Shown here in pieces: positions 18,536 through 47,845 of a stretch of 64,000 nucleotides of DNA; position 1 is the stretch's first letter; each line of letters begins with the position of its first letter. Location: contig CAWJKT010000009.1 of the NCBI GenBank assembly GCA_963843375.1, positions 224,001 through 288,000 on the forward strand, written 5' to 3'. Position numbers and translations under genes: made by a program. The notes below the pieces were generated by a model. That model ran no database searches, had not been told where the DNA came from, and saw only the letters and a program-made list of their open reading frames with translations. This DNA is from an uncultured Pseudomonadota bacterium. Lineage in GTDB: Bacteria > Oederibacteriota > Muellerivitia > Muellerivitales > Muellerivitaceae.

Positions 18536-18563
18536 AATCCAACAAGAGGACCCTTAGTGGACA
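18536..18563 (+). repeat. 28-bp site 1 (divergent left arm; left boundary)
   Basis: AATCCAACAAGAG-GA-CCCTTAGTGGACA. Confidence 0.65.
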
Positions 18564-18584
18564 GCAATTTTAAAGGGATTTGCC

Positions 18585-19142
18585 ATGAAAAAACGTATCG
18601 TGTTCAGCTTGATGTTTATTTTCTTCTCAAGCCGGATTTGTCTTTCCGAATCTTCCTTGGATTCCGTAACATACCAAAAGGGTAAAAAAGCCGAGGACTC
18701 AAAGGATTTTATCCAAGCTTTAAAGTGGTATCAAAAAGCCGCATCAAATGGAAACGCAAGCGCGGAAAACGCCTTGGGTCATCTTTACTTACGAGGTGAG
18801 GGAGTTCCACAGGATTTACAAAAATCAATGGAATGGTATCGGAAAGCAGCCAAGCAGGGAGACCCTGAGGGGGAAACTAATGTTGGACACGGTTATGCCA
18901 TGGGATATGGGGTGACCCGGGATTACCATAAGGCACTGGAGTGGTACTTAAAAGCTGCCGCCCTTCAGAACGGCCGGGCCGAATTTTTTATCGGGGTAAT
19001 CTATACCAATGGTCTTAGAGTACCAAAGGATTACAAAAAAGCCATGGATTGGTTTCAAAAATCCGTCGCACATGGAAATAAAGAAGCCCCCTCTTGGTTG
19101 CCGATCCTTAAAAAACGTATAGCAAGTGGAGAAGTTAATTAA
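18585..19142 (+). CDS. Sel1-repeat (SLR) secreted protein
   Basis: Repeats of A..WY.KAA..G...A...LG..Y..G.GV..D. Confidence 0.9.
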   Translation: MKKRIVFSLMFIFFSSRICLSESSLDSVTYQKGKKAEDSKDFIQALKWYQKAASNGNASAENALGHLYLRGEGVPQDLQKSMEWYRKAAKQGDPEGETNVGHGYAMGYGVTRDYHKALEWYLKAAALQNGRAEFFIGVIYTNGLRVPKDYKKAMDWFQKSVAHGNKEAPSWLPILKKRIASGEVN

Positions 19143-19187
19143 TTTCAAAATTATAAAGGCCCCCTCTGGAAATGAGTATCAAAAGGT

Positions 19188-19215
19188 TGTCCACGGCGGG
19201 GACCCAGCATGGACA
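19188..19215 (+). repeat. 28-bp site 2
   Basis: TGTCCACGGCGGG-GA-CCCAGCATGGACA. Confidence 0.9.
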
Positions 19216-19277
19216 GGGAAATGTGTGGACATCATCCGTACGTTCATGTATGCTTCTTTTGAGGGTAAGGGGGGGTT

Positions 19278-19553
19278 ATGGCTACAGTCACACAATCAAG
19301 GGAACAACGAATCGAAATTCGTATCCGACCGAAAGACAAGGCTATGCTGGAAAAGGCCGCCTCGATCTTTGGGCTGAGCCTCAGTGCCTTCATGCTATTC
19401 AATTCTTTGAAAGCGGCCCAAGAAGGGCTGACGGCTCAGAGCCGTATCACCCTTTCGGAAAACGAGTGGAATTCCTTCATGAAAGTCGTGGAGCACCCGC
19501 CCCGCCCTAATAAGGCCCTTCTGGCTCTCGCTAAGAAGCATAGCCGCGCTTGA
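19278..19553 (+). CDS. DUF1778 (TacA-like) antitoxin
   Basis: RIEIRI...K..LEKAA...G.SLSAF, ITLS..EW..F...E.PP.PN.AL; paired with GNAT. Confidence 0.88.
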   Translation: MATVTQSREQRIEIRIRPKDKAMLEKAASIFGLSLSAFMLFNSLKAAQEGLTAQSRITLSENEWNSFMKVVEHPPRPNKALLALAKKHSRA

Positions 19554-20080
19554 GCCATTCTGAAAAACCTTTGGATATCGACGTTCTGCCAATCTCCCGC
19601 CATTTGGACTTGGGGTCTTTCGATAGCGGCGCACAGGCACTGAATGACTATCTCCAAAAATATGCCCGGCAAAATCACGATAGGAATATTAGCAAGACCT
19701 TTGTGGTCACGGAAAAAGAGGGAAATCGGAAGGTTTTGGGCTTTTACACGTTAGTTGCCTCCGAAATTGACGCCAAAACAATTCCTACAACCCATTCTAA
19801 ACACCTTCCCCGTTACCCAGTCCCTGCCGTAAGAATTGGAAGGCTTGCGGTAGACAAGCATCACCAGGGCCTAGGGATCGGTGAAGAACTTTTATGGGAT
19901 GCCCTTGGTAAAGCCAATCATTTATCCAACGAGGTCGGCATTTATGCCGTCGTGGTTGACGCTAAAGATGAAAAAGCTGCTCGCTTTTACCATAAATACG
20001 GGTTCGTTCCATTATCCAATAATCCTAAAACACTTTTTTTGCCTGTCGAAACGATAAAAGCTCTATTTACCAAAAAATAA
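19550..20080 (+). CDS. GNAT acetyltransferase toxin (TacT/AtaT-like)
   Basis: FDSG...LNDYL, PVPAVRIGRLAVD..QG.G.G, VDAKDE.A..FY..YGF. Confidence 0.9.
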   Translation: MSHSEKPLDIDVLPISRHLDLGSFDSGAQALNDYLQKYARQNHDRNISKTFVVTEKEGNRKVLGFYTLVASEIDAKTIPTTHSKHLPRYPVPAVRIGRLAVDKHHQGLGIGEELLWDALGKANHLSNEVGIYAVVVDAKDEKAARFYHKYGFVPLSNNPKTLFLPVETIKALFTKK

Positions 20081-20104
20081 AAGGATTATTGTCCTCGCAG
20101 AGGT

Positions 20105-20132
20105 TGTCCGCCACGGGGAGGTGTAATGGACA
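20105..20132 (+). repeat. 28-bp site 3
   Basis: TGTCCGCCACGGG-GA-GGTGTAATGGACA. Confidence 0.8.
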
Positions 20133-20207
20133 AGCAAATTGGAAAATTTGTTCCTTTTTAACCTAGAAAGTATATACTATTCGTATATACCATCAAAGGA
20201 GCACTAA

Positions 20208-20447
20208 GTGACTAAAGTCCTGTCCCTAAAAATTAAAGGTGAAATCTTCGAGGATGTGGAAGTCCTAACCAAACGGCTTCATATGCCCCGCAACACCTAC
20301 ATCAACGAGGCGCTGGATTTTTACAACGCTTTCAACAGGCGCAAAGGGCTTCGCCAAAAACTAAAAAAAGAATCCCTGCTCACGCGAAAGAATTCCATGG
20401 ACATTCTGAGCGAGATGGAAAAACTCGAAGAATCAACCGCTGAATGA
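20208..20447 (+). CDS. Putative ribbon-helix-helix antitoxin
   Basis: 79 aa, SLKI...RNTYINEAL; overlaps start of the MazF toxin. Confidence 0.75.
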   Translation: MTKVLSLKIKGEIFEDVEVLTKRLHMPRNTYINEALDFYNAFNRRKGLRQKLKKESLLTRKNSMDILSEMEKLEESTAE

Positions 20448-20788
20448 AAATCAGGAAATTTAATATTTACCTGGCCGATCTAAGCCCGCGTTTCGGCACC
20501 GAGCCTGGAAAAACGAGGCCTGTCGTCGTTCTTCAAACAAACCTTTTGAACGATAGCCTGCATCCCAGCACGATCATCTGTCCCATCAGTACCAACGTCG
20601 TTCACGGGGCAGAGATACTTCGTGTCCGCCTTCCGAAGAAGGAAACGGGCCTTCGAAAAGATTCCGATATTTTGGTCGATCAAATACGGTCCATTGATAA
20701 CCGCCGATTCGTCAAGCATTTGGGGGAATTGGGCCCGATCGATAAGGCGAAGTTGATTGAAAACCTTAAAATTCTTTTATTTGAATAA
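20444..20788 (+). CDS. MazF/PemK family toxin
   Basis: YLADL.P..GTEPGKTRPVVV, DQIRSID..R. Confidence 0.9.
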   Translation: MKIRKFNIYLADLSPRFGTEPGKTRPVVVLQTNLLNDSLHPSTIICPISTNVVHGAEILRVRLPKKETGLRKDSDILVDQIRSIDNRRFVKHLGELGPIDKAKLIENLKILLFE

Positions 20789-20800
20789 ACCAATCAGGGT

Positions 20801-20828
20801 TGTCCACGGCGGGGACCCGGATTGGACG
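20801..20828 (+). repeat. 28-bp site 4
   Basis: TGTCCACGGCGGG-GA-CCCGGATTGGACG. Confidence 0.9.
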
Positions 20829-20846
20829 ATGGGGAGGACAAATATC

Positions 20847-21110
20847 ATGGGCAAGACCACGGTCATCAGTTTTGTGACCCTCGATGGGGTCATTCCGGCG
20901 CCAGCTAGACCGGATGAAGATATACGCGGGGGGATCACGCGAGGTGATCGCGGGCTATTGACTGACACCAATATTCAAACTCGAGCTAAGACTTTGTCTG
21001 AAATAATTGAACATTTGTCACTTCATCGGGAGGCTGGCCACAATATTCCCGATGATACCGTTGATGACTTCACCGGGGAAGCGGGAGTGGGCCGTGAAAC
21101 TTCCCGCTAA
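20847..21110 (+). pseudogene. Truncated DHFR/RibD-C-like N-terminus joined to a possible HicB-like remnant
   Basis: GGAGG RBS then MGKTTVISFVTLDGVIPAPARPDEDIRGG, after which the similarity stops; later IEHLSLHREAGHNIP resembles a HicB C-terminus. Confidence 0.5.
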
Positions 21111-22008
21111 AGGCCAGGCGAAGCCCGGCCTAAAAATCCTCGTGACGGGGATCACCATCGATCCACCGGGAGCGACCTATGGGCCGCGTCTACAAAACCA
21201 CAATGAGTTCATCTGGCTGATGGAAGGAGAGGCGACCGCCACCTTCGATAAGCGGGTTATCCGGGCCGAGACTGGGACCGTTCTCCTTCGGCGCGCGGGC
21301 GTGAGGGATTACTATGAATGGTCCTCGAAGCGCCGCACCGTCCATGCCTATATCCAATTCGACCTGGACCCCGAATGGCGGGAAGCATTGAAGCCGTCGA
21401 TCCCTTCCTTCCGTGTTCTTCCCCCCAACGACATTATCCGCCCGCTTTTCGGTTACCTTTTGAACCTGGAACGACTGAAGGAGCCCCTTCGGAGCAAGTT
21501 GATGATCCCGTCACTGGAATTAATGCTTCAAAGTTATGTCACGGGTGAATGGGCGGTGAAGGCCCAGCCCGCCACCCATTTGCCGGTGGCGGTCGCGAGG
21601 GCAGTGGAGGCCATAAGGGAGAACACGATCCGAACCCCGCCGGGGCCGCTCCGCTTGAAAGACCTGGCCCTGGCTTCGCGCACGACGCCCGAAACCCTCT
21701 GCCGCCTCTTCAAGAAATCACTTAAACTGGGGCCGCTGGAATACGCCAAGCTTTCCCGCCTTGACCGCGCCACCAACCAACTGCGCCGAACATCCTTAAG
21801 CCTCAAAGAGATCGCCACAGCTACGGGCTTCTACGACGCCTACCACCTTTCCCGCAGTTTCAAACAGGTTTATGGTATATCCCCAAAAATATTCCGGGAA
21901 TCAGGCAATATCGAATGGATCTCCCAGAAAAACCCCATCATCCGGCTGCTCTACATGGGCAAGGCGGCGGATTCCAGGAAAGGCCCGCCGATTCCGCGAG
22001 GAAATTAG
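21094..22008 (+). CDS. AraC family transcriptional regulator
   Basis: N-terminal cupin-like region; C-terminal double HTH LKEIA..TGFYDAYHLSRSFKQVYGISP. Confidence 0.9.
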   Translation: MKLPAKGQAKPGLKILVTGITIDPPGATYGPRLQNHNEFIWLMEGEATATFDKRVIRAETGTVLLRRAGVRDYYEWSSKRRTVHAYIQFDLDPEWREALKPSIPSFRVLPPNDIIRPLFGYLLNLERLKEPLRSKLMIPSLELMLQSYVTGEWAVKAQPATHLPVAVARAVEAIRENTIRTPPGPLRLKDLALASRTTPETLCRLFKKSLKLGPLEYAKLSRLDRATNQLRRTSLSLKEIATATGFYDAYHLSRSFKQVYGISPKIFRESGNIEWISQKNPIIRLLYMGKAADSRKGPPIPRGN

Positions 22009-22361
22009 AAAAAATTAATTTTCCCGGGATGGCCCTTCCCTGATCAAGCGGTCAATTCCATCCATCCTTTTGTCAATCCTGTCTATCCCGCTTTGAGGCT
22101 CCCCGGGGGTTTAATAGTTACAACGGGTATTGAAGTACCGTTGTTGGAAAACTCATTCGAGGGGAGACACCGTGCGTTTATTCCTCCTGAAATCGTTCCT
22201 GCCTTTTCCCCTGTTTTTTTCCCCTTCTTCCGCCTGGGCCTTTTCCGCCGGTTTGAACATTTTCCGATCCGACGAATTCAACCAGTCCGGCAACCGCACG
22301 CCGACTCCGCCGGCAGGTTTTATGAAAAGGAGTCGAATTGAAAAAAAGGGATGGAAGATTC

Positions 22362-25300
22362 ATGAAGCATAGGGCCGGTTGGATCCTTTTTTTAAAAAGG
22401 GCAGTAAAATCGTTTTGGGTTTTGCTCTTCATCGCCAACGCCCCAAAGGTTTTTGCTGATTACACCTGGGAAGGAGTGCCTTCCGGTTATGGGCTGGCCT
22501 GGAGCGACGAGTTCAATGGTTCGGTCGGAAGCGCCCCCAATTCCGCCAATTGGAGCTATGTCACAGGTACTGACTGTTGTGGAAATAACGAGTTGGAAAA
22601 TTATACGACCAGTACGGCCAATTCCCAGATCGTGGCCGATCCCAACGCGATAGGCGGCCAAGCCCTGGCCATCATCGCCTTGGATCCGGGCGGCAATAAC
22701 GATGCGGCCGGCGATTACACTTCCGCCCGGCTGGTCTCTTCCGTGGGTTCAACCCCGAACAATAATTGGCAATATGGTTACATGGAAGCCAGGGTCAAGA
22801 TGCCCTATGGGGACGGCATCTGGCCGGCCTTTTGGATGATGGGCAATAATATCAATTCGGGCACGGCCTGGCCCACCTGCGGCGAGATCGATATCATGGA
22901 AAACATCGGGAACGCCGCAACCTATAACGGCAACCCACCTGACCAGGCCAACAACCACGGGTCCCTTCACGAAGGGCCTTCTTCCTCCGACGTGGTTTCG
23001 GCCACCGATATTTTTACCCTGGCCGGGCCCCAGCTCTTTCACAACGCCTACCATACCTTCGCCGTCAATTGGCAGGCCAACGAGATCCAGTTCTACGTGG
23101 ATGGGAACCTTTATGAAACGGATACTTCCTCGTCCCTAACCGGCGCCACTTGGGCGTTCAACAACAGTTTTTTTTACCTGTTGAATTTGGCGGTTGGCGG
23201 CACTTGTCCGGGCAATCCGGATGTCTCGACTTCTTTCCCGCAAACCATGTTCGTCAATTATGTGCGGACCTACCAGACAGGCAAACCCACCCCCACACCG
23301 GTGGTCCAGTCCACCTGGCGGGTGCATTGCGGTGGGGACAATTACACCGACGGCGACGGCAACCTCTGGGTGGCGGACACGAATTTCACGGGGGGCTGGC
23401 CTTCCTACGGCAGTACGGCCGCCTCGGGTACGGTGCTTCCCACCTCCAGGCGACTCGTTGCTTTACCAGTACCAAAGGTATGGGAACACGACGGGCGGGG
23501 AAACGGTCACCTATACCTTCAACGTGCACGCCGGCTCCACTTACCAGGTGGACCTGAAATTCGACGAGACCAATTCGACCGGGCCCAATCAGCGGCAGTT
23601 CAACTACTCGATCAACGGCGCGACAGAGGCCACGAACTTCGACATTTATGCCACGGCCGGAGGCGCCAACAAGGCTTTGGATGAGGTTTACAATAATATC
23701 TCGCCGAACTCCAGCGGCCAAATCGTCATCCAGTTCACCCAAGGGGCCTATGGCAACCCGACAGTGGGAGCCATTCAAGTCATTCAGACTTCATCGACCT
23801 CTACGCCTACCCTAACATCCACGGCAACGTTCACTACGACCTCCACTCCTTCCAGGACAAGCACGCCCACCCTCACTTTTACCGGGACCTATACACACAC
23901 CTTCACCCCCACCAATACTCCCACGGACAGCCCCACTTTTACCGCCACAGTTACAAGAATGAATACGGCCACCAATACTGTGACCAATAGCCCCACCGCA
24001 ACGGCCACCTCAACCCCCACGGCCATCCCGACCAAAACGCCGACGAGCACGGCCACTTCTAGCGTCACCAGCACGGCCTCCGCCACACCCACGAACACTT
24101 TTGGCAATACGGCCACGAATACCCCTGCTTCAACCCCCTCGAGTACCGACACCGGTACTTCTACAGCTACCGACTCAAACACCGCCACCAAGACGACCAC
24201 TTCCACACCGACGAGCACGGCCACTTCCAGCCCCACAATTACCTCATCCTCAACGCCCACCAAAACGACGACGGCGACCCTCACGGATACCCTAGCCAAC
24301 ACGGTCACTCAAACCGCCACGGCAACCGATACTCCCACTTCCACCATCTCAAACACCCCGATCAAAACCACGACTTTGACTCCCACGCTCACTCCCACAG
24401 CCTCCACCACTGCCACGGCTACCAACAGCTCGACGGTTACCCCGATCTTCACGGCCACAAATACCCAGCCCCCCACAGCCTCTAATACTTCGTCCCTGAC
24501 GGCATCGAGCACCCCCACGGAAACCTCCACCTTCTCAGTCACCCTCAGCCCCACTACAACACCCACCAATACCGGGACCATTCCTCCCGCCAATTCGGCC
24601 ACCCCCACCCCCACCCTTACGCCCACCAGTAGCCCTACCACTATCCCCACCAACAGCCCGACCAATTCACCCACGTTCACGCCGACTTTCACGCCCACGG
24701 CCTCCAGCAGCCCCACCGGGACTCCCACAGGCACCTCCACCAACAGTCCCACTTCCACCACCACCCATTCCCCGTCCGTCACGCCCACCAATAGCTCATC
24801 GCCGACGCCTATGAATACACTCACTCCAACGCCAATTCTTACTGCCACTCTGACTCCGACGTTAAGCCCAACGAATACGGCTTTCACGGCGACTTTCTCG
24901 CCTACTGGAACGCAAACCAACAATGCAACGGGAACCCCCACGGCGACTCAGCTCACGAACACGCCCACCCCAACCCCCACGGTCACCTTCACCCCAACCT
25001 CCACCAATAGGAGTACCATGACATTTACGGTGTCAAATACTCCCACGAGCGCGACCACTTACAGCCCCACATACCCTTTAACGAATACCCTCACTCCAAC
25101 ACAAACTCTTACCGTCACCATGACTCCGACATTAAGCCTAACGATTGCGCCGACGTTCACTCCGACCCCCGCCATGACAGGAGTCGTGATTGGCCTCCCC
25201 TTTCCAAACCCCGTTTTCGGCGAAGGGCCCGTGTTTGTTCGGGTGCAGGCCGCTTCCGGCTCAAAGGTGGAATTAAGCATCTTTACGTCGGCCTTTCGCA

Positions 25301-25467
25301 AGGTCCTGGACATTCCCAGTCCCGTTCAGGGTGATAAAATGACACTTAATTGGGATCTGGATGATGCTTGGGGAAATCCCGTGGCAAATGGCCTTTACTA
25401 CCTGAGGGTTCAGGTTTCCGATCCGGTCATTACCTCCAAAATCCTGAAGGTCCTTGTCATTCGGTAA
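22362..25467 (+). CDS. Secreted GH16 glycoside hydrolase + malectin-like domain + long Thr/Pro linker + C-terminal Ig-like domain; one-base frameshift near 23445
   Basis: WSDEF, WPAFWM, GEIDIME (GH16); WRVHCGG..YTD..GN.W.AD continues in the next frame as LYQYQRYG...V.LKF.E...RQF (malectin). Confidence 0.82.
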
Positions 25468-25526
25468 GACAAGTTTCACTGAAACCAAAAATATTTTTCT
25501 AATAAAATAAAATTAAATCGAATTCT

Positions 25527-25554
25527 TGTCCACGGCGGGGAGGTATAGTAAACA
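25527..25554 (+). repeat. 28-bp site 5
   Basis: TGTCCACGGCGGG-GA-GGTATAGTAAACA. Confidence 0.8.
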
Positions 25555-25719
25555 ATAATTTTTTCAATACCTTGGCTGCTTCTTCATCCTCATCCTGAAC
25601 AAAAAGCGCTATTTATTATCAATTTTATTGTTGCCTCCCCTCCCCCCCACTACTAAACTTCCTCATGCTAAATTCTTTTCAACACCTTTAACCGCCCAAT
25701 TCGAGTCAAAGATATTTCA

Positions 25720-26982
25720 ATGAAGATTCAAATCGTAGGGCTTTTTTCGCTTCTCGTTGGAGTCGGCTTTTTAACCCTCGGTTGTCCATCCAAAAGTAAC
25801 AGCCCTTCTAGCCCAGCTGCGCCGACTAATATTTCCACTCCAATCATTACCAATACGCCGACCAACACTAGCACCAACACCGCCACGGGAACGGCAACGG
25901 GGACACCAACCAAAACCGCCACACCTACCAGCAGCGGCACGCCTACCAATTCGCCAACGTCCACTCCCTCGGGCACCCCGACCAACAGCGCTACGAATAC
26001 CGCGACCGCGACGATCACTAACACGCCGACGATTACCCCCACATCCACCCAAACGGGTACACCAACGAACAGCGCTACTGTTACGCCGACCTTTACGATA
26101 ACGAGCACAGCGACCGTTACCGCCACCAGCACACCCACCAACTCGCTTAGCGCTTTCGCGACTATTGGCAGCGATGGTAAAACTTTATTTAACTATCCCA
26201 TGGGTATTCAATACCTAGGAGGTTATTTATGGATGGCGGATACAAATGGCCTTGGGTCCCCGAATTTTCAAGAATGGGTCACGAATGGAACCAGTCCCGT
26301 GACGAACATGACAATTTATAATGGATCGGCATCGTTTCAGGCTCCCTGGGGTGTGGGCATTGATTCCGCCACTGGAAATGTCTATGTGACGGATGAAGTT
26401 GCGGGTCAAATTGATGTTTTCAACTCCGCCGGGACTTACCTTACCAATTTTGGAAGCACCTATTTAGACAAGGGCTTCTTGGGCGTGGCCTTAAACTCGG
26501 CGGGGACGACGGTTTATGCTCTCACGTCAGATTCTATTATTTATATTGTTTCCGTTACCCCCGGTTCGATCCCCACTTATACCCTTCAAACAGGCTTTGG
26601 CCAATCGGGGTCTGTAGCATCGTATAAGCTTCTTTCCCCTCAAAATTTGAGAGTAGACGGAAATGGATATGTTTGGGTGGCGGATCAAGGAAACCATCGA
26701 GTGGCGGAATACACCGGAGCGGGGATTTATAACCTCACATCCTTTATTACGGTAACCAGCCTTGCCAATCCTTTTATGCCCTCGGATGTATTGGTGGACA
26801 GCTCTGGTAACGTCTACGCTACGGATAATGAAAATAATTATGTCGTGGAATTTAATTCATCCGGCACGCAAATAGGCCAATTTGGGGAGGGGATTTTATA
26901 TGGACCCAATGGCATTACCACGGATGGGGCTGGTAATTTTTACGTAACAGATTCAAGTCCTCAAATAGTGGGGTTTCATTAA
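25720..26982 (+). CDS. Lipoprotein with Thr/Pro-rich stalk and NHL-repeat beta-propeller
   Basis: Lipobox [39 protein letters not shown]. Confidence 0.8.
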
Positions 26983-34100: not shown

Positions 34101-34108
34101 CCCAGGAG

Positions 34109-39800: not shown

Positions 39801-39938
39801 ATCAACCGTAAGTATATACTTACCGATATGTCGATTGTCAAGATTCAATTATTGGAAGGGAAAGGTTGGAAATTAGACGGGAGTAAATAACATTTAAACG
39901 TGAGCTGGCCGTTACAATTGTAACGAAATGTAACTGGA

Positions 39939-39966
39939 TGTCCACGACGGGGACCCATCGTGGACA
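39939..39966 (+). repeat. 28-bp site 16
   Basis: TGTCCACGACGGG-GA-CCCATCGTGGACA. Confidence 0.92.
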
Positions 39967-40076
39967 GAGAATAGTTTTGCAAAGAGCATGGACAAGTGGG
40001 ATTGGGGCAGGAAGTTTCGAAAGGAATCGTAGAATTAAAACGGAAAAATATACCGAGGATGGTCGATTTGGACGTT

Positions 40077-40664
40077 CTAAAGCCCTAAGCCTTGAAGAAA
40101 GGCTTCTGATTCACGCTCGAACTGTTCTCGTATGTATGAAATGAGGGCCATACGCCAAACACCCTGCAAGTAAGTAATGATGACCTTGGTAATTGTGCCG
40201 GTGTCATAACTTTTAGGAAGACGCCCTGCTTTCTTATCTTCATTGATCTTGTCTTCGATCAGTTTTTGAGTTTGATTTATCCTGGTAATAATAGCTTTTC
40301 TTAATTCGTTATCAGCCATAACGTCTTCGGAAAGCATCCCAGCGAACATGCAAATATTAGAAGGGCATTTGGGATCATCGAGACTGTCAAACATGGCGCT
40401 TAGCATGGCCCGCATCCCAAGACTTGTACTCGGGGCTGATGTCAGGGCAAGGCTTCTTTTTTTGCCTTCGATCTCCCCATACCTCTTCAAACATTCGATA
40501 TAGAGGCGCTTTTTGCTTTTGATGGTATTGTAAAAGGAACCTTCCCCGATCTTCATCGCCTTCAGAAGGTCTCTTAGCGATGCACCAGAGTATCCGTCAC
40601 GCCAAAAGACGCGCATCGCTTGATCCACTGCCTTATCGTAATCAAACTCCACTTTTCTAGCCAT
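40077..40664 (-). CDS. TetR/AcrR family regulator
   Basis: MAR..EFD......AM.VFW..GY...S..DL..AM.I..GSFYN. Confidence 0.9.
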   Translation of the reverse strand: MARKVEFDYDKAVDQAMRVFWRDGYSGASLRDLLKAMKIGEGSFYNTIKSKKRLYIECLKRYGEIEGKKRSLALTSAPSTSLGMRAMLSAMFDSLDDPKCPSNICMFAGMLSEDVMADNELRKAIITRINQTQKLIEDKINEDKKAGRLPKSYDTGTITKVIITYLQGVWRMALISYIREQFERESEAFLQGLGL

Positions 40665-40812
40665 GTCTCATTTTACCTCTGCGAAATATCTGAAGCAATC
40701 TATTTGTAGCAAATGTGACAATATCATTTGACTGCCGTGCCATTATTCTGTAGCATGTGCTATAGAATTTAAGCGGAGATATTTCCCACGATGTTGTGGT
40801 TAGGAGACGAAA

Positions 40813-41706
40813 ATGAACGAAAGTATATTGATAACAGGAGCAAATATTGGGCTTGGGAAAGAAACCGCCCGACAGTTAGCCCTGAAAAAAGAAACAAAAA
40901 AGGTAATTCTTTTTTGCAGAAATCAAGAAAAAGCCGAGGCAGCAAAAAAGGACCTTGAGGAGAAAACGGGAAAAAAGATTTTTGAAATTATTATTGGGGA
41001 TGTTTCGGATGCGAATTCTGTAAGAAAAGCAGTAGAAAAAATAAAGGACCCTATTGATGCCGTCATTTTAAACGCAGGTGGAATGGTTGGGAAAACTGCT
41101 GCGCAAATCACACCCTCTGGCATGAATAATTTGGCCGCGACTAATATTTTAGGTCATGTGGTTCTAGTGGATGAGCTTCTAAAACAAGATAAGTTAAAAA
41201 AAGTAGTACTATTTGTAAGTGCGGAAGCTGTACCGGGAGTAAAGCCTCTCGGAATGAAACCAGTTTCAATGAAGACTTCCTCTGTGGATGAGTTTGCTGC
41301 GGTTCTTGATGGTTCATTTTTTGGTAAAAAGTTCGATGTAACCCAAGCATACGGATACGTTAAATATGTAGGAACGATGTGGACGTTATCAATGGCAAGA
41401 AAATATCCTGATCTCAAATTTGTTGTTATGAGTCCCGGCAACACAAAGGGAACTCTGGCACCGGATAACTTGCCCCAGCCTATGAGATTTATGTTGAAGT
41501 ACGTAATGATGCCTATTGTGTTTCCATTGATGGGTGGAATGGTGCACGAGATAGAGGTAGGTGTAAAACGCCTCGTCGATGGCATTTCGGATGAGCGATA
41601 TAAAAGTGGCGTTTTTTATGCGAGTAAAGAGGGTAAGCTATCGGGGGACGTGGTTGACCAGAGCACGTTTTTTCACTGCTTTGAAAAATACTACATTTCA
41701 AGATAA
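40813..41706 (+). CDS. SDR family oxidoreductase (a possible frameshift in the T6 run at 41668 would extend it to 41743)
   Basis: ITGANIGLG, LNAG, Y...K; divergent from TetR. Confidence 0.85.
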   Translation: MNESILITGANIGLGKETARQLALKKETKKVILFCRNQEKAEAAKKDLEEKTGKKIFEIIIGDVSDANSVRKAVEKIKDPIDAVILNAGGMVGKTAAQITPSGMNNLAATNILGHVVLVDELLKQDKLKKVVLFVSAEAVPGVKPLGMKPVSMKTSSVDEFAAVLDGSFFGKKFDVTQAYGYVKYVGTMWTLSMARKYPDLKFVVMSPGNTKGTLAPDNLPQPMRFMLKYVMMPIVFPLMGGMVHEIEVGVKRLVDGISDERYKSGVFYASKEGKLSGDVVDQSTFFHCFEKYYISR

Positions 41707-41745
41707 CGCTGATAAAGCAATTCACCGGAATATTGTGGCCTAGCG

Positions 41746-42384
41746 ATGAAAAAAGTGTTGGGTGAGCTAACTTGGGCCGCTTCTTATGTTTTTCTTGTCC
41801 TGGGATTCCGGGCTTGTCTTCATGCAGAAACGTCAACAAGTGAGGAATTGCTGGCTACCTATCCCCCCGCACAGTTTAAATTGGATTTCAAGGATGATGG
41901 GGAGCAGGATACGCTGACATTGACCTGCAAAAAGGTCAAAGATTATTCGGTGGATCCTGATACGAAAGAGAAAATCTCGGAGAAAAAGTTTGTTTGGTAT
42001 CAATTTCACATGACCATTGTTTCGCCAAACCATGAAACCCTCTGGGATGATACCTATTCAATTAAAGACGAGGATTACAGCGGGCTTTTTGAAAACTTCG
42101 ATACCCCCTTCCTAACGCCAGCGGTTTATATAAAAAAATATTTTTCAGTGAAATTCAACCACATTGTAAATTGGAAAATAAGTAAAGATGAAATCGATGA
42201 AGATTTAATTAAACAAAAAATCAAAGACACGAAAGTGAAGGTTCGGGTGGAAGATGTTGAAAAAGAGATTCTTACTGGCAAGCATACTGTCGTATTTTAC
42301 CGAGGTGACTGGGCGGTGGACTTGAGGCAGGCGGTGTATTCAAAAAAGCTTCGTAGTGCGGTTGGCTTAGCATGCCCTTATTAA
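41746..42384 (+). CDS. Hypothetical exported protein
   Basis: N-terminal hydrophobic segment; stop 9 bp before site 17. Confidence 0.65.
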   Translation: MKKVLGELTWAASYVFLVLGFRACLHAETSTSEELLATYPPAQFKLDFKDDGEQDTLTLTCKKVKDYSVDPDTKEKISEKKFVWYQFHMTIVSPNHETLWDDTYSIKDEDYSGLFENFDTPFLTPAVYIKKYFSVKFNHIVNWKISKDEIDEDLIKQKIKDTKVKVRVEDVEKEILTGKHTVVFYRGDWAVDLRQAVYSKKLRSAVGLACPY

Positions 42385-42393
42385 GGCTACCCT

Positions 42394-42421
42394 TGTCCAC
42401 GGCGGGGAGCCTTCGTGGACA
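42394..42421 (+). repeat. 28-bp site 17
   Basis: TGTCCACGGCGGG-GA-GCCTTCGTGGACA. Confidence 0.9.
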
Positions 42422-42535
42422 AGGAAATAAGGCAATAAACGGATAAATGAATATCACCCTTTTAATAGTGAATTGGATAATTGGCCCGTTTGGAATACAA
42501 TCTGAATAAGCTAATGTAAGCAAAGGGGAACGGTC

Positions 42536-42769
42536 ATGAGTCTCGCCGTCAAAGTACCTGTGGACCTTGAAAATCTTATCCAACAGCTTTCCGTGAAAGA
42601 CAAAATCAAGCTGGCCCACGAGCTCGAAAGGCAGACCCGGCGCGAACGTTGGACCCCCCTTCTCAACCGCATCCAAAAACGGACGGCCAAAAATCCGGTC
42701 ACTGATAAAGAAATAACTGCGATTGTCAAAGAAGCCAACCGGGAATTACATGGCAAAGGCCGTCGTTGA
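42536..42769 (+). CDS. Putative antitoxin
   Basis: 77 aa, overlaps the downstream PIN toxin; EI.A.VKE.R-like C-terminus. Confidence 0.7.
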   Translation: MSLAVKVPVDLENLIQQLSVKDKIKLAHELERQTRRERWTPLLNRIQKRTAKNPVTDKEITAIVKEANRELHGKGRR

Positions 42770-43163
42770 TACCAATGTATTGATTGGTATTCTTCTCGGA
42801 AGCCATAATTGCCTGGCGGTGCGCGAGGCTTTCCTGGATGGCCTTTTTGACATCCTCATTTCACCTGAACTCGCCGCCGAGTTCATCATCACCTGCCAAA
42901 AACCAAAACTTTCCAAACTCATTCATCCTGGTGATGTCGCGGACACGATGGAGCTTTTAAAAAGCGATGCGGATTGGGTTGCTCCAAAAGTTAAAATCTT
43001 CGCAATCCGTGACCCCAAGGACAATCCCGTATTGGAATGCGTTGTCGCAGGGAAGGCCGATTTCATCATTTCGGGCGACAAAGACCTACTCGATCTCAAA
43101 TCTTTCCGGAAAATTAAAATTATTAATCCTCGGCAATTTTTAATGCTTTTGAAAAGGGCTTAA
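42750..43163 (+). CDS. PIN-family putative toxin
   Basis: AVVDTNVLI, RDPKDN.VLECV..G.ADFIISGDKDLL. Confidence 0.9.
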   Translation: MAKAVVDTNVLIGILLGSHNCLAVREAFLDGLFDILISPELAAEFIITCQKPKLSKLIHPGDVADTMELLKSDADWVAPKVKIFAIRDPKDNPVLECVVAGKADFIISGDKDLLDLKSFRKIKIINPRQFLMLLKRA

Positions 43164-43171
43164 CTCCGAGC

Positions 43172-43199
43172 TGTCCACGACGGGGACCCCAAAGGAACA
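43172..43199 (+). repeat. 28-bp site 18 (divergent right arm)
   Basis: TGTCCACGACGGG-GA-CCCCAAAGGAACA. Confidence 0.82.
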
Positions 43200-43265
43200 A
43201 TAGTTTAAAGGCAAAAGGGATAGTAATTTGTTTGATGCAAATTTGGTATCATGTATAATACCAAT

Positions 43266-43694
43266 ATGAAACCATTGAGAATTGTACTGGACACCAACAT
43301 TCTCGTCTCCGCTTTAAGGTCGCGCCTAGGCGCTTCGCACCAGTTATTATTGGCGGTGGGCGACAAACGGCTTCAACTTCAACTATCAGTGGCGTTGTTA
43401 TTGGAATATGAGGCTGCCATTAAAAATCCCAATAGCGGCATCAACCTTTCGGCGGATGAAAAAGACGATATCCTGGATTATCTCTGCGGTGAAGCGAAGC
43501 ACTGTAAAGTGCATTACCTTTGGAGACCTTGCTTGAAAGACCCGGGAGATGACATGGTCCTGGAAGTGGCAGTTGCTTCGGAAGCAAGTGGGATTGTCAC
43601 TTTTAACAGGCGGGATTTTAAAGGGATTGAGGCTTGGGGCCTAAAGATTTATACACCCCAGGAAATTTTGAAGATTTTAGGAGGCCATAAATGA
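43266..43694 (+). CDS. PIN-family putative toxin
   Basis: VLDTNILVSALRS..GAS, WRP.L.DP.DDMVLE.AVA, IVTFN.RDF. Confidence 0.9.
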   Translation: MKPLRIVLDTNILVSALRSRLGASHQLLLAVGDKRLQLQLSVALLLEYEAAIKNPNSGINLSADEKDDILDYLCGEAKHCKVHYLWRPCLKDPGDDMVLEVAVASEASGIVTFNRRDFKGIEAWGLKIYTPQEILKILGGHK

Positions 43695-43930
43695 GTGCCA
43701 TTAGCTTGAGATTACCGAATAACCTTCACCGTTCCGTCCGGGAATTGGCGGGAAAGGAACATGTTTCGATCAATCAAATGATCACCTTGGCCCTTGCGGA
43801 AAAAGTCTCAGCCTTGATGGCGGATGAATATTTGGGCCGCCGGGCCAAGCGTGGAAGCAAGGCGAAATTCCTCAAGGCGATGGGGCATGTTGAAAAAATC
43901 GAGCCAGAGGCCAAAGACAAGTTACGGTGA
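43691..43930 (+). CDS. HicB-like RHH antitoxin
   Basis: SLRLP..LH..VRELA..E.VSINQ.I.LALAEK. Confidence 0.85.
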   Translation: MSAISLRLPNNLHRSVRELAGKEHVSINQMITLALAEKVSALMADEYLGRRAKRGSKAKFLKAMGHVEKIEPEAKDKLR

Positions 43931-43986
43931 CCTTCTGAGGTTTCCTTGAATTGGTTAGGCGACAACTAAAGAATGATCTGGAAGGT

Positions 43987-44014
43987 TGTCCACGACGGGG
44001 ACCCGGGGTGGACA
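43987..44014 (+). repeat. 28-bp site 19
   Basis: TGTCCACGACGGG-GA-CCCGGGGTGGACA. Confidence 0.9.
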
Positions 44015-44085
44015 ATATCAATTTGGGAAACGTTGTAAACATTTTGGTTCAAATCATTAATCCAAAAACAGGGAGGTATAAGAGC

Positions 44086-44763
44086 ATGAAAAATTATTTG
44101 AAAAACCTGGTGCTTTTGTTCTTGTTGTTGGTCCGCGTTGCGGGGGCCCAATCCGGCAACCTGCAACCAAATGATTTTGAAAATTCCGCAAAAGAACAAC
44201 TAGTGTCCCTAAAGGAAACCGTTTCAAGTTTGACCAATGAAAAAGGAGATCTCAGCGACAGGCGCGGTGATTTGACTCTACGGATATTAAAGGAATATTT
44301 GAATGACAAGGCGGATGAAGCGACATCCCAAAAGAACACACAAGGAGCCGCTTATTACCAAAAAGAGAGCTTGGACCTTCAATCATTGCATGACGATATT
44401 TATGCCCATAGCATTAAAATTAGGGACCTCAACCATCAGATGGAAAACTTGCGTGTCGGTTTATACACCGAAGTCATTGATAGATTTACCCAGAGTTTTG
44501 AAAATGATAAAAACTCCAAAGCCGTCTCAATCCTCAAGGAATGCAAAGGTTTCCTTGAAAAGGCTCAATCCATTGTGGAAAAGAAATTTGAGCTGGCCCA
44601 AAATGCCACCGAGGTTAAGAAGAATGGTAATTTCCAAACCGTACCCGATATCCGCAAGCAGATCGATGAACTTCAAAAACAATACGATAAGCTCATTTCG
44701 GACACCCAGGTGAAAATGAAACAAATTGGGTTGGATAAAAACAATCCTCTACTCAATATCTAA
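44086..44763 (+). CDS. Secreted coiled-coil hypothetical protein
   Basis: GGAGG RBS, signal peptide, heptad-like helical composition. Confidence 0.7.
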   Translation: MKNYLKNLVLLFLLLVRVAGAQSGNLQPNDFENSAKEQLVSLKETVSSLTNEKGDLSDRRGDLTLRILKEYLNDKADEATSQKNTQGAAYYQKESLDLQSLHDDIYAHSIKIRDLNHQMENLRVGLYTEVIDRFTQSFENDKNSKAVSILKECKGFLEKAQSIVEKKFELAQNATEVKKNGNFQTVPDIRKQIDELQKQYDKLISDTQVKMKQIGLDKNNPLLNI

Positions 44764-44906
44764 TCTCAATGTCGGTCGGTGATCGGGGAGGACATTTTTT
44801 GATTCTCATCCCAGGCTTCGGTCCGTTTCTCTCTTTTCCCCGTCCCCCAAAATCCCTAGTCAGAATCGCAAGTAGCGCCTTTTGAAATGTTGCAATGCAA
44901 GTATCT

Positions 44907-44991
44907 TGTCCACGGCGGGGACCCCGTTCGGCTCCCTTTGGTCGCTCAGGGCAAATTATAAGTCGTCCAATCTGGGGACCCTGATTGGACA
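44907..44991 (+). repeat. Composite junction: half site + REP-like mini-module + 28-bp site 20 (44964-44991)
   Basis: TGTCCACGGCGGGGACCC-CGTTCGGCTCCCTTTGGTCGCTCAGGGCAAATTATAAGT-CGTCCAATCTGGG-GA-CCCTGATTGGACA. Confidence 0.85.
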
Positions 44992-45056
44992 GATGAGAAG
45001 TAAGAAATATCTCGCTTGGATTGAATTTAAAGGGATGAATCTAAAAGAGGCCTCCT

Positions 45057-45971
45057 GTGTTTAAGTTATCAATGATATCAATTTTTATTTTTGCCGCACA
45101 AATCACGTTCGGCGGAGAACTTCAAGCAATAGTTTATTGTAGTGGTACTAATGAGGATGATTTGGGGTTGTGTAGTATCTCGCCCGAAGGTACAAAGCAC
45201 TCCTGCTTAAATGATCGAGATCATTCACTTTTAAATAATCATTATTCCTCTCCAGCTTGGAAACCCAAAAGCAAAGAACTTGTGGTCGAATACGCAAAAC
45301 CTGATGGGGATCGAATACTGGAATTAATTGATGGCCTTGGGAATAAGATTCGCGAAGTTAACAAATCCTTTAATTTTATGAGACCCGTTTGGAGCCCCGA
45401 TGGGAGCCACATTTATGCGTTGAAGTATGGGATAGGGCCACAAATAGGACAATGGGATTCAAATGGGATGAACTTTAAATTTGTACCCATTGTGGGCGCG
45501 CCTAACAACACGAACGCCCCTAATAGCCAAGGTGATTTTCAAATGATTTCTTTCAGCCCTTCAGGGAAAAGCGTCGCTTTGCTCAACTACGGGTTCAAAC
45601 AGATCATTGTAGCTAGTGTGAAAGAACAACAATTTGTCGCTCAAAAAGAACTTCCGACGAATTTTAATTACGTGGCCCAGTCGGCATGGCTTGATGAGAG
45701 TCATTTGCTATTTGTCGGGAGGTTAAATCCGGGGGCTGCCAATCTTTGGGAACTGAACATTGGGGATGGTTCTACGCGTTTAGTGGAAATTCCTAACCTT
45801 TCGCTTCAGGATTACTTTGCCCTCTCGCCGGATCGAAAATCAGTTGTTGTTTGCGCGACAGAAAAAAATCAAAATTTGTGTTGGAGTCTTTGGGAGTATT
45901 TGTTGGGTTCTCCCGCGGCCAAGAGACTTACAACAAGAAATCTGGATTCCGGCCCTACCTGGGGGGACTGA
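45057..45971 (+). CDS. Secreted TolB/PD40-like beta-propeller protein
   Basis: SPAW.P, PVWSPDG, SFSPSG, LSPD, PTW repeats. Confidence 0.72.
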   Translation: MFKLSMISIFIFAAQITFGGELQAIVYCSGTNEDDLGLCSISPEGTKHSCLNDRDHSLLNNHYSSPAWKPKSKELVVEYAKPDGDRILELIDGLGNKIREVNKSFNFMRPVWSPDGSHIYALKYGIGPQIGQWDSNGMNFKFVPIVGAPNNTNAPNSQGDFQMISFSPSGKSVALLNYGFKQIIVASVKEQQFVAQKELPTNFNYVAQSAWLDESHLLFVGRLNPGAANLWELNIGDGSTRLVEIPNLSLQDYFALSPDRKSVVVCATEKNQNLCWSLWEYLLGSPAAKRLTTRNLDSGPTWGD

Positions 45972-45991
45972 GTATTAACGGTTGCAAAGCT

Positions 45992-46076
45992 TGTCCACGA
46001 CGGCGACCCCGTTCGACTCGCTAAGCTCGCTCAGGGCAAATGATAGGTCGTCCAATCTGGGGACCCGGAGTGGACA
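45992..46076 (+). repeat. Composite junction: half site + REP-like mini-module + 28-bp site 21 (46049-46076)
   Basis: TGTCCACGACGGCGACCC-CGTTCGACTCGCTAAGCTCGCTCAGGGCAAATGATAGGT-CGTCCAATCTGGG-GA-CCCGGAGTGGACA. Confidence 0.85.
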
Positions 46077-46115
46077 GAAGAAAAAAGGATTGAATTTCTT
46101 GTTTAATGTCGCGAG

Positions 46116-47045
46116 GTGTTGATGCAATTCTTCAGAATAGATAAAAAAATCATCCTTTTAGTGGTTTATGCACTTCTGCAAGCCATTGGGATGAACCATG
46201 GTGTTTGGGCAGATCCGGCAGGCGTGTCCACTTCAAAAATTCAAAATGACGATCCCTGCGAAGACTTTATTCGCCAATGGATTGACGGGAAAAATAAAAC
46301 CATTCCAATCAAATTACGTGAGAGGATTCAAAAATATTTAGGGAAGGAAGTTCTCTATCCTCCGCCCATTTCCACAAAAGAGGCTCCCTTTTTTCTTCCG
46401 AAACCTAATGAAATACGGGCTAGTTTTAAAATGGTGCCCTATGCTGATGCAGAATACCAATATAAGATCGATTCTGAATTTATAGCCGCGGGGGACATGG
46501 TTGAAACGAGATATGGGAAATCACCCGTCACCTTCATGCTACATAACGTCTTTTCTTCATTCATCCAAAACCATACTTACTTCCTGGTGAATTATGAGAA
46601 AGACGATTCGGAAACGGACTCAACCGAATATTACAACCTCTATTTGCAAACATCCCCAAAAGCAGTAAGTGAATTAGTTCACGGCGCTTCCCATATTGAC
46701 TTTTTCACTCTTGGAAAAAATTCACCCATATTTGTGGTGGAGGAAAGCCAAACATTTGATGCACATTTCAAAGGTGGATTTTATCAGGTAAGGGGAGATG
46801 GAACCTTAAAAGAGTTGCAAAACTTGGAAGCCTTTAAAGTAAGTTGGGATATCGCTGATTTTGAGGGAAATGGTAATTCGGAACTCATGGTAAGTGAGGA
46901 GATGGACGTCCCCAAACGACCGACTGATTGTAAGGGACATGGAACCTGTTTTTTTCGCGAAATGAAGATCAAAAAATGGGACGGCGTCCAATACGATACG
47001 ATCGCAGATTATTTCTACATTGAACCCTGTGATGTTGTTAGATAG
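46116..47045 (+). CDS. Hypothetical exported protein
   Basis: Signal-like N-terminus; one FG-GAP-like DFEGNGNSEL motif. Confidence 0.68.
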   Translation: MLMQFFRIDKKIILLVVYALLQAIGMNHGVWADPAGVSTSKIQNDDPCEDFIRQWIDGKNKTIPIKLRERIQKYLGKEVLYPPPISTKEAPFFLPKPNEIRASFKMVPYADAEYQYKIDSEFIAAGDMVETRYGKSPVTFMLHNVFSSFIQNHTYFLVNYEKDDSETDSTEYYNLYLQTSPKAVSELVHGASHIDFFTLGKNSPIFVVEESQTFDAHFKGGFYQVRGDGTLKELQNLEAFKVSWDIADFEGNGNSELMVSEEMDVPKRPTDCKGHGTCFFREMKIKKWDGVQYDTIADYFYIEPCDVVR

Positions 47046-47059
47046 AAATAAATTAAAGT

Positions 47060-47087
47060 TGTCCACGGCGGGGACCTGTCGTGGACA
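47060..47087 (+). repeat. 28-bp site 22
   Basis: TGTCCACGGCGGG-GA-CCTGTCGTGGACA. Confidence 0.92.
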
Positions 47088-47185
47088 TGCAAAATGGGGC
47101 TAGACCTGACATTTCACCGGATTGCCACGGGGCCCCGGGTTTGATATAAGTATGGTAAGTAGTGCCATACTATTGGGGAGGCGAA

Positions 47186-47383
47186 ATGAAAATTACAACC
47201 CATATTGACGAAGCTCTCTTACGGCAGGCGAAACGCAAAACGGGTATCGTTTCTCAACGGGAAATCCTGGAAACCGGCTTACGTAACTTATTGGCGGATA
47301 TCCAAAGAAAAAGTTTCGTGAAGGATTTTGATAAGTTCCGCCTTGATCTCACACTCAATTCACTCAAAGGATCCAGGGGTTGA
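47186..47383 (+). CDS. VapB-family antitoxin
   Basis: T..IDEALL..A...TG..S.RE.LE.GLR.L. Confidence 0.82.
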   Translation: MKITTHIDEALLRQAKRKTGIVSQREILETGLRNLLADIQRKSFVKDFDKFRLDLTLNSLKGSRG

Positions 47384-47814
47384 ATCAGCTTTATCTGATT
47401 GACAGTTCGGCCTGGATTTTTGCGTTGGGTTCCAGGCCCCTGGAGGCCATACGAACGCGGGTGAAAGAATTGGTGGAAAACAATCTTGCAGCCATTACCT
47501 CACCTATCTTCTTCGAGCTTGTTTCTTCCGAAAAATCTCAGGCCCATTCGACACTATTGGCGGCGCATTTATCGGCCCTTCACCCTTTCCCCTTATTGCC
47601 AAATGAGTGGGCGGAGGCGGCCGAGTGGACTAGAGAACATCGCCAAAAAGGGCGTAAATTAAAAACGGTTGATGCTTTGATTGCCTTTAAAGCGTATAAA
47701 CACAATCTGACCCTGGTTCACGCTGATGCGGACATGGACAGGATTGCAAGCCATTCCAAATTGGAAGTGGAAAGCTATGTCCGGCAGGTTCGCTCTGTCC
47801 ATCGGAGCAGTTAA
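47380..47814 (+). CDS. VapC PIN-domain toxin
   Basis: LIDSSAWI, DALIA..A..H.L.LVH.D.D. Confidence 0.88.
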   Translation: MNQLYLIDSSAWIFALGSRPLEAIRTRVKELVENNLAAITSPIFFELVSSEKSQAHSTLLAAHLSALHPFPLLPNEWAEAAEWTREHRQKGRKLKTVDALIAFKAYKHNLTLVHADADMDRIASHSKLEVESYVRQVRSVHRSS

Positions 47815-47817
47815 AGT

Positions 47818-47845
47818 TGTCCATGGCGGGGAGGCGAAATGAAAC
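47818..47845 (+). repeat. 28-bp site 23 (divergent right arm; right boundary)
   Basis: TGTCCATGGCGGG-GA-GGCGAAATGAAAC, 3 bp after the VapC stop. Confidence 0.7.

Follow-up and report, generated by a model that had tools for sequence, protein, structure and literature searches.

Putative mobile gene cassettes joined by a 28-bp palindromic site in the chromosome of an uncultured peat or soil bacterium

Integrons are the textbook case of gene banking and reshuffling in bacteria and are defined by one integrase family together with folded attC sites, which are 57–141 bp long, contain R''/L''...L'/R' boxes, end in RYYYAAC and GTTRRRY, and work as a folded single strand. A plainer layout, in which two half sites on duplex DNA surround an asymmetric centre that sets direction, is that of the core sites of the Xer/dif, Cre/lox and Flp/FRT type. 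Modules of the pdif kind are bounded by oppositely oriented sites, which resemble the chromosomal dif of the host and bind its Xer enzymes, and occur mostly on plasmids. As outlined in published accounts, these pdif or Xer-dependent (IMEX) modules of Acinetobacter and Vibrio have at their ends a 28-bp site in which two inverted arms enclose a short centre, carry no recombinase of their own, and are thought to be served by a host enzyme in trans with exchange in the centre of the site (PMC11705084, PMC12907356, PMC5357621). Stacked cargo units without an integrase, parted by a repeated attachment sequence, are likewise outlined for CIMEs and tycheposon satellites (bioRxiv 10.1101/2020.12.28.424599). 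Here we analyse a window of 64,000 nucleotides (G000:C9:224001-288000) from genome G000, an 80% complete assembly of 4.05 Mb in 32 contigs from an uncultured peat or soil bacterium, in which a 28-bp palindrome recurs between small groups of genes. The patterns detected are consistent with an array of mobile gene cassettes joined by a simple site-specific recombination site, a reading to which we assign a probability of roughly 0.7.

The locus resembles sedentary integrons and CALINs in its long co-oriented arrays, its cassettes of one to three genes with a site at each 3′ end, its cargo rich in toxin-antitoxin pairs and unknown proteins, the sharing of cassettes among genomes in other orders, and the lack of an integrase beside the arrays. 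It differs in that the site is a near-perfect palindrome of 28–30 bp, split at its centre, with arms that do not behave as a folded single strand, and in that no IntI was found in 41 genomes, no attI or promoter platform exists, and a genome holds several arrays; the three features that define integrons, IntI, attC anatomy and a folded substrate, are all missing. As far as the accounts of pdif and IMEX modules describe them, the locus shares with these a 28-bp site (13+2+13), inverted arms, apparent exchange at the centre and the lack of an own recombinase, whereas the sites here are direct repeats of unrelated sequence in long chromosomal arrays, and a tandem XerC/XerD-like pair was not found in G000 or in G001, a 99% complete sister genome of the same genus. 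No published description of this site or array system was found, judging from titles and the openings of abstracts.

The site consists of two 13-bp arms around two bases (TGTCCACGRCGGG, GA, CCCGTCGTGGACA) and is weakly extended to 30 bp by enrichment of a flanking T and A. Its outer hexamers are TGTCCA and TGGACA, its inner bases GGG and CCC, and its centre, GA, is asymmetric. A preliminary description, made from the letters of the window, had listed 23 full and three half copies, and every one lies at the coordinate it gave. The consensus it proposed held for part of them: at three or fewer mismatches it matches 11 of the 23 positions, and the other 12 carry a variant arm, keeping either the left arm and core or the outer hexamers. 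At this tolerance the consensus matches 16 times on the two strands of the window, with none expected in 100 dinucleotide-preserving shuffles, and a weight matrix built from G000's own copies recovers 25 of the 26 window copies at its threshold of 14 bits, the left boundary copy at 18536 falling short. Neither consensus nor matrix matches anywhere in the window outside 18536-47845, and 37806 is the sole inverted copy, so both the restriction to this interval and the common orientation of 22 of the 23 sites stand as first described. The same is true of the location 3–60 bp behind a stop codon, which applies to 19 of the 26 copies relative to the nearest upstream plus-strand open reading frame (ORF; median distance 29.5 bp). 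In line with the statement that a site never falls inside a toxin-antitoxin pair, none of these pairs is split; four longest-ORF calls do span a site, but all of them rely on far-upstream TTG, ATG or GTG starts. A CRISPR array was ruled out by the spacing of the sites (57–4726 bp) and by the protein-coding cargo of the intervals.

Three arm classes recur: the common one; a class reading (C/T)GTCCAAYCYGGG with its mirror CCCGGATTGGAC; and right arms that start with GG (GGTGTAGTGGACA, GGCGAAATG and others) where the common right arm starts with CC. In a profile of 227 unique copies the information content is confined to positions 0–29, followed downstream by mild A-richness only, so there are no arm-type or accessory sites. 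When sites were selected symmetrically, the left inner tetranucleotide was CGAC or CGGC in 21 of 29 and the right one was far more varied, which suggests that left and right arms follow separate evolutionary lines, the outcome to be expected where all exchanges bring the sites together in the same direction.

Outside the window the motif is not scattered between housekeeping genes, the pattern that would have marked it as an ordinary repetitive palindrome. The matrix gives 89 matches in G000 versus one in the reversed sequence, and 70 of the 89 fall in nine runs of at least three sites on the same strand. Contig C6 has three such regions and C9 two, further runs lie on C10 and C18, and a few copies stand alone; the runs cover about 2.5% of the genome, an estimate from hit coordinates. 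In every mapped run the genes are oriented like the sites, and the site stands behind the stop codon. An 18-mer of the motif, allowing one mismatch, was surveyed in 24 other genomes of the family, one genome of the sister family and 15 genomes from eight further families of the phylum. It is present in 21 of the 24, representing 16 genera, with up to 98 copies (in G018, 99% complete), and is missing from G017, G019 and G024; elsewhere in the phylum there is one copy in the sister-family genome and a single one-mismatch match in one of the 15 others, while the reversed control pattern gives 0–1 matches per genome. Among 80 listed of 156 matching stretches in a species-representative collection, nearly all are titled as metagenome-assembled genomes of candidate division FCPU426, the exceptions being a few labelled proteobacterium or uncultured bacterium and one Firestonebacteria. 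An estimated 300 stretches of metagenome contigs carry the motif, and the viral contigs searched gave no match.

Judged from comparison with relatives, the array is an insertion between the wcaJ-like gene, the final gene of a conserved polysaccharide cluster preceding it, and the galE-like gene. Thirty family genomes were compared for orthologues of the flanking genes and for array DNA. The wcaJ-like gene has an orthologue in 27 of them and the galE-like gene in 29, and in 25 of the 30 the two lie on one contig with a gap of 11–1267 bp (748 bp in G001), against 29,660 bp here. The test of module order across relatives, suggested at the outset, thus finds the array missing between the same genes in 25 relatives, and the order of modules is not common to relatives. 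No canonical site occurs in the 18 gaps of relatives that were fetched, but at least seven of them have a conserved GGTTCGAGTCCAAnnnGGGGAG straight behind the stop codon of the wcaJ-like gene, which corresponds to the part of tRNA-Asn from T-loop to discriminator (compare the G000 gene at C11:449989-450063); ARAGORN found no tRNA gene at these spots, and the locus has none. The left half of the first site, 18536, aligns with this element and is followed by a canonical right arm, while the last site, 47818, has a canonical left arm and GGGGA followed by a non-canonical right half. A reciprocal exchange in the middle of the site would be expected to leave such boundary hybrids. The syntenic and contiguous locus of G001 also lacks a second array of G000 (C6:254-271 kb). 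In G008, which belongs to another genus, the stretch from the wcaJ-like gene to the contig end has, in this order, one degenerate site, one cassette, another site and a VapBC cassette, and on another contig the galE-like gene is preceded by a site at a distance of about 150 nt, so the same spot has been used at least twice.

Within the array the modules behave as independent units. Single modules recur in other genera at 75–93% identity, on other contigs and beside other neighbours. The two halves of the array served as DNA queries, with nine candidates per genome scored, and a match of at least 75% identity counted as crossing if it covered a site and over 40 bp of DNA to each side of it. None of 92 matches crosses a site, whereas 1000 random placements of equal lengths averaged 27.9 crossings, with 16 as the lowest count; the 26 further matches of the second-half query, read by eye, cross none either. 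The MazEF cassette at 20105-20828 has 14 homologues, in which homology stops at or inside both sites and the outer 300 bp never match. In G001 this cassette abuts a homologue of the cassette at 34710, which lies 14 kb away from it in G000; in G005 the 34710 cassette, and in G021 the MazEF cassette, adjoins a cassette that G000 has on contig C6. In these sampled match lists no two neighbouring modules of G000 were found together in its congener G001.

The variant arms place the boundary of the unit more finely. The odd right arm before the PIN/HicB cassette (CCCCAAAGGAACA, site 43172) recurs as CCCTGAAGGAACA before the 88%-identical homologue in G018, where the arm is preceded by unrelated DNA and the sites downstream differ in their right arms. 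Homologues of the VapBC cassette in G018 and G008 have in front of them a GG-type right arm like that of site 33991. Conversely, the odd left arm TGTCCGC(C/G)AC behind the GNAT cassette (20105) recurs in G023 with another right arm and flank. That variant arms stay with their cassette shows that a cassette consists of right arm, genes and left arm, and a circle made from it would carry one whole site. Taken together, arm linkage and the boundary hybrids map the exchange to roughly positions 10–16, within GGGGA or immediately behind it.

These observations, namely clustering, absence from relatives and homology that ends at the sites, support the initial proposal of an integron-like system that shuffles modules without attC. 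In the mechanism we propose, a recombinase encoded elsewhere in the genome, most likely a simple tyrosine recombinase of the Xer/Cre type, would bind both arms as duplex DNA, with strand exchange within or beside the central GGGGA. Two sites in direct repeat would recombine to release the cassette between them as a circle with one whole site, and recombination of the circle with any other site would insert it in a direction fixed by the asymmetric centre. A sequence that resembles the site, for instance the tRNA-Asn-like fragment behind the wcaJ-like gene, could serve as a target too. Through repeated insertion, accessory genes, among them many toxin-antitoxin pairs, would pile up in one orientation.

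The enzyme itself would have to act in trans, since none is found beside the arrays. Pfam finds no recombinase in the window, and the flanks of all G000 arrays have no gene in common. In 141 metagenome loci that reach as far as 8 kb from a site and total 543 kb with overlaps, the 586 unique ORFs of at least 100 aa include no homologue of any of G000's 14 tyrosine recombinases, even at E=10, and no gene family recurs beside the arrays; one weak resolvase match and one intron reverse transcriptase were seen. Among these 14 tyrosine-recombinase matches of G000, six are paralogous integrases of 367–386 aa, 58–66% identical (Table 1); four of them lie next to a tRNA gene (Asp, Ser, Ser, Arg), the other two next to a tRNA 3′ fragment (Thr and one unidentified). 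They were rejected as the array enzyme as ordinary island integrases at tRNAs, their copy number tracking the number of sites only loosely. One of the six is 100% identical in protein to its G001 copy, while core genes of the two genomes are about 83% identical in DNA. Also rejected were RAYT/Y1 transposases and serine resolvases, which do not co-occur consistently with the motif, and the tandem XerC/XerD-like pair, which G005, G018 and the motif-less G017 have but which was found neither in G000 nor in G001. In G017 there is also a site-like palindrome at 3.7 kb from a fragment of the Xer-like gene described below; it falls within a long ORF and was taken as chance. Separately, three consecutive tyrosine recombinase genes (431, 340 and 423 aa) at G000:C8:95063-98359 resemble a recombinase-in-trio element.

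The candidate that remains is a single-copy Xer-like gene of conserved synteny (G000:C10:182366-183469, 367 aa), which scores 152.7 bits for XerC and 142 bits for XerD, both below the cut-offs, and whose nearest solved relatives are an XerC-like protein and XerD. Of the 24 other family genomes 23 carry it, as does the sister family, against none of the 15 genomes from other families; this range is the same as that of the motif. No site lies within 6–9 kb of it in G000 or G001. We regard this order-restricted gene as a possible array enzyme with the odds somewhat against it, the argument for it being one phylogenetic coincidence. The recombinase gene might conceivably also be missing from the G000 assembly; G001 and G018 are 99% complete.

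Several points weigh against a dedicated site-specific system. First is that no recombinase was found beside any array, and that the Xer-like candidate is also present in the three site-less genomes. Secondly, the linkage of arms to cassettes is also compatible with homologous recombination within the repeat. Thirdly, the identity of cassettes between genera (75–93%) is about that of flanking core genes (72–84%), so the shuffling may be old and present-day activity would be an extrapolation. The match lists, moreover, are samples, limited to nine candidates per genome. Contigs from four public runs do contain two joints exactly at sites (38532>39942 and 39966>43987), each of them supported only by letters of the repeat itself (26 and 29). 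These runs, all of short contigs, showed no excised circle, no empty junction and no polymorphism within a population.

An alternative explanation could be that the motif is a REP- or terminator-like hairpin at the 3′ ends of accessory genes, serving RNA stability or termination, and that the arrays arose by homologous recombination, for example after DNA uptake, with no dedicated recombinase. The lack of a linked recombinase and the possibility of crossovers inside the repeat would suit this, as would the position of the sites just behind stop codons in gene orientation and the folding of perfect copies into a 12-bp stem (−12.7 kcal/mol, z = −4.1). Some group II introns of the ORF-less type target terminator-like stem-loops, and such an intron lies directly 3′ of sites here. 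But a hairpin would not account for the arms, which do not covary: they are complementary at 9.24 of 13 positions within a site against 9.15 in random left-right pairs (permutation 0.11), and at 9.30 across one cassette. About half of the window copies are hybrids whose right arm is not complementary to the left, and their folding is no better than that of shuffled sequence. Both observations speak against a structural hairpin, whether terminator, REP or folded attC, and equally against terminal inverted repeats of a transposon; with the lack of conserved flanks, they would fit a simple duplex recombinase site. Further, A is enriched behind the sites in place of a T run, the motif is missing behind housekeeping genes and limited to about 2.5% of the genome, and the target of the array shares only GTCCA and GGGGA with the site, which is too little for homologous recombination. 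The likeness to REP/BIME elements with RAYT lies in short GC-rich palindromes behind genes; these here are clustered and not dispersed, have hybrid arms, and no RAYT-type gene (PF01797) matches in G000 or G018. We consider the hairpin explanation unlikely.

Less room still is left for two further explanations. In one, each cassette would be a non-autonomous transposon with the right and left arms as 13-bp terminal inverted repeats, a 2-bp GA duplication, and a transposase in trans that prefers earlier junctions. Right arm and left arm do form inverted repeats around each cassette, and GA stands between neighbours and at both array boundaries, but the ends of a given cassette agree no more closely than random pairs do, whole isolated palindromes without cargo occur on contigs C14, C15, C19 and C26, and the target behind the wcaJ-like gene resembles a whole left arm and not GA alone. 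A screen for transposases of the Y1 (RAYT/IS200) type found none in G000 or in G018 with its 98 sites. On balance the transposon is quite improbable.

The other is that the units are integrase-less islets of the CIME or tycheposon-satellite sort, accreted by an island integrase that targets tRNA genes, with the sites as attL and attR derived from the 3′ end of tRNA-Asn. One left-arm class is indeed the tRNA-Asn 3′ end (GTCCAACCCGGGGAG, one mismatch to the arm consensus), tRNA-Asn fragments stand behind the wcaJ-like gene of at least seven relatives, the C6 array lies 540 bp behind tRNA-Thr, and G000 has six paralogous island integrases at tRNA genes or fragments, a relative of which abuts a tRNA-Asn 3′ half in G003. 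However, the common arm differs from tRNA-Asn at four of 15 positions, and the site is a self-contained palindrome without arm-type flanks, whereas the att repeats of these integrases are tRNA halves of about 45 nt from the anticodon loop. G003, with its tRNA-Asn integrase, has two motif matches only, and the units, of 0.06–4.7 kb, are shared piecemeal across genera. Compared with tRNA islets as outlined in the source cited above, the locus here has a palindromic core repeat, much smaller units and no integrase at the array end, and the window array is not at a tRNA gene; an integrase is lacking from the window and from the stretches of up to 8 kb beside sites in the 141 metagenome loci, while the C18 array lies 1.2 kb from a 516-aa integrase. 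This origin is very doubtful. The tRNA-Asn-like fragments, which lack CCA and the 5′ half, stand behind the wcaJ-like gene at L025, L030–L033, L036 and L039, in at least seven genera; 2–11 occur per family genome (in G000 at C7:68566, C11:19277 and C8:126998), and they are possibly an attachment remnant, a secondary target or an RNA element.

It is highly improbable that the array is what remains of a genuine integron (CALIN), with IntI acting on unusually short attC sites, since, for all its co-oriented cassettes, 3′ sites, toxin-antitoxin-rich cargo and lack of an adjacent integrase, no IntI passes the 265-bit cut-off of TIGR02249 in 41 genomes (best 47.5 bits in G000 and the family, 92.5 bits overall, in another family), and the 28–30-bp sites end in TGGACA, not GTTRRRY, and are split at the centre, not six bases from one end. 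The preliminary description had likewise set the site apart from attC, with which its length, its ends, its lack of conserved flanks and the missing integrase agree. The three long half-site forms were ruled out as attC-like, two of the three folding no better than shuffles.

Directly 3′ of site 28486 lies a group II intron without an ORF, whose Rfam matches correspond to D1-D4 and D5/D6; at E<0.1 Rfam gives group II intron matches only. The search with array halves found 11 matches to it in five relatives that start inside the site, and a 98%-identical 5′ fragment stands behind the last site of the C18 array (G000:C18:59734-59865). From these three placements the intron family seems to home to the palindromes, much as group IIC-attC introns home to attC sites. 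A group II intron bearing a reverse transcriptase on contig C9, at about 135 kb, was rejected as site-adjacent, beginning about 960 bp from the closest site.

If site-specific recombination of cassettes is accepted, a stronger version may be entertained, namely that this is a third, independently evolved cassette stockpile beside integrons and pdif modules. It would combine a vertically inherited, order-specific Xer-type enzyme in trans, a dif-like 28-bp palindrome with one arm modelled on the tRNA-Asn 3′ end, a host that captures, orients and shuffles cassettes at many chromosomal sites throughout the family, and a dedicated ORF-less group II intron that homes to the sites. We offer this only tentatively and think it rather less than an even bet. 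Whatever the fate of this version, the architecture known from integrons rests here on a plain 28-bp duplex-type site without an integron integrase, in at least 16 genera of FCPU426, a phylum with no cultured member, and cassette banking would be wider than integron-finding software detects. The many arrays per genome would make these organisms a good case for how soil bacteria store accessory genes, including defence and addiction modules, and a compact directional 28-bp site with its enzyme could serve as a recombination tool.

Table 1. Features of the array and its surroundings (window coordinates, unless a contig of G000 is named)
Feature	Position	Strand	Basis or remark
Left flanking gene, sugar transferase (Bac_transf, wcaJ-like)	17009..18502	+	Pfam PF02397, 5.8e-71
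Left boundary hybrid site	18536..18563	+	chromosomal left half resembling tRNA-Asn 3′ end, canonical right arm
Cargo, about 22 modules	18564..47817	+	Pfam, NCBIfam, ORF and site map
Site	19188..19215	+	
Site	20105..20132	+	unusual left arm (TGTCCGCCAC), GG-type right arm
Site	20801..20828	+	canonical left arm, GGATTGGAC-type right arm
Site	25527..25554	+	GG-type right arm
Site	28486..28513	+	degenerate left arm
ORF-less group II intron, directly 3′ of site 28486	28514..29297	+	Rfam RF02003 61.6 bits, RF00029 45.1 bits, both above gathering score
Site	30233..30260	+	
Half site	32445..32472	+	left arm and core, no right arm; opens 91-bp ORF-less mini-unit
Site	32536..32563	+	tRNA-Asn-like left arm (CGTCCAATCT), canonical right arm
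Site	33201..33228	+	both arms tRNA-Asn-like
Site	33991..34018	+	GG-type right arm (GGTGTAGTGGACA) travelling with downstream VapBC cassette
Site	34710..34737	+	exact consensus match
Site	35371..35398	+	
Site	35996..36023	+	
Site, sole inverted copy	37806..37833	-	0 mismatches on - strand; centre reads TC on + strand
Site	38506..38533	+	exact consensus match
Site	39939..39966	+	
Site	42394..42421	+	
Site	43172..43199	+	unusual right arm (CCCCAAAGGAACA) travelling with downstream PIN/HicB cassette
Site	43987..44014	+	
Half site	44907..44934	+	opens 57-bp mini-unit
Site	44964..44991	+	tRNA-Asn-like left arm
Half site	45992..46019	+	opens 57-bp mini-unit
Site	46049..46076	+	tRNA-Asn-like left arm
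Site	47060..47087	+	
Right boundary hybrid site	47818..47845	+	canonical left arm and GGGGA, then G and non-canonical right half
Right flanking gene, NAD-dependent epimerase (galE-like)	48163..49080	+	Pfam PF01370, 8.3e-60
Six paralogous integrases	C6:226038, C8:84965, C9:31181, C11:206672, C11:49933, C8:179354		

The cargo is much as first described, with toxin-antitoxin pairs, two short-chain dehydrogenases/reductases (SDRs) and several proteins that match no family in Pfam or NCBIfam. The toxin-antitoxin genes comprise two MazEF-like pairs, one RHH-PIN, two VapBC, two modules with a BrnA-type antitoxin and two PIN_3 pairs. Besides the SDRs there are Sel1, GNAT, NHL, penicillin amidase, TetR and PD40 proteins, an AraC protein with glycanase-like and malectin-domain proteins, and a DoxX/ArsR unit on the minus strand. 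At 22338-25467 two long ORFs overlap in different frames, one glycanase-like (448 aa) and one with a malectin domain (757 aa), possibly a single exported glycan-binding protein interrupted by a frameshift or by an error of assembly.

Three ORF-less mini-units of 57–91 bp run from a half site to a site of the tRNA-Asn type (32445-32563, 44907-44991 and 45992-46076). They have the inner sequence CTCAGGGCAAAT(G/T)ATA(A/G)GT in common, which within G000 occurs only in this window, and the same half-site form stands before a VapBC cassette in G005 (L381). In G042:C26 (L375) the site upstream of a homologue of the BrnT/A cassette has a perfect hairpin of about 34 bp inside its left arm, with a few core bases duplicated on both sides of the insert. 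The end of the C18 array (G000:C18:59860-62591; L019:15860-18591) holds a DUF5906 protein, the 516-aa integrase, with a C-terminal catalytic match only, and tRNA-Ser, the array lying 1.2 kb from the last two; this array may ride on an integrative element.

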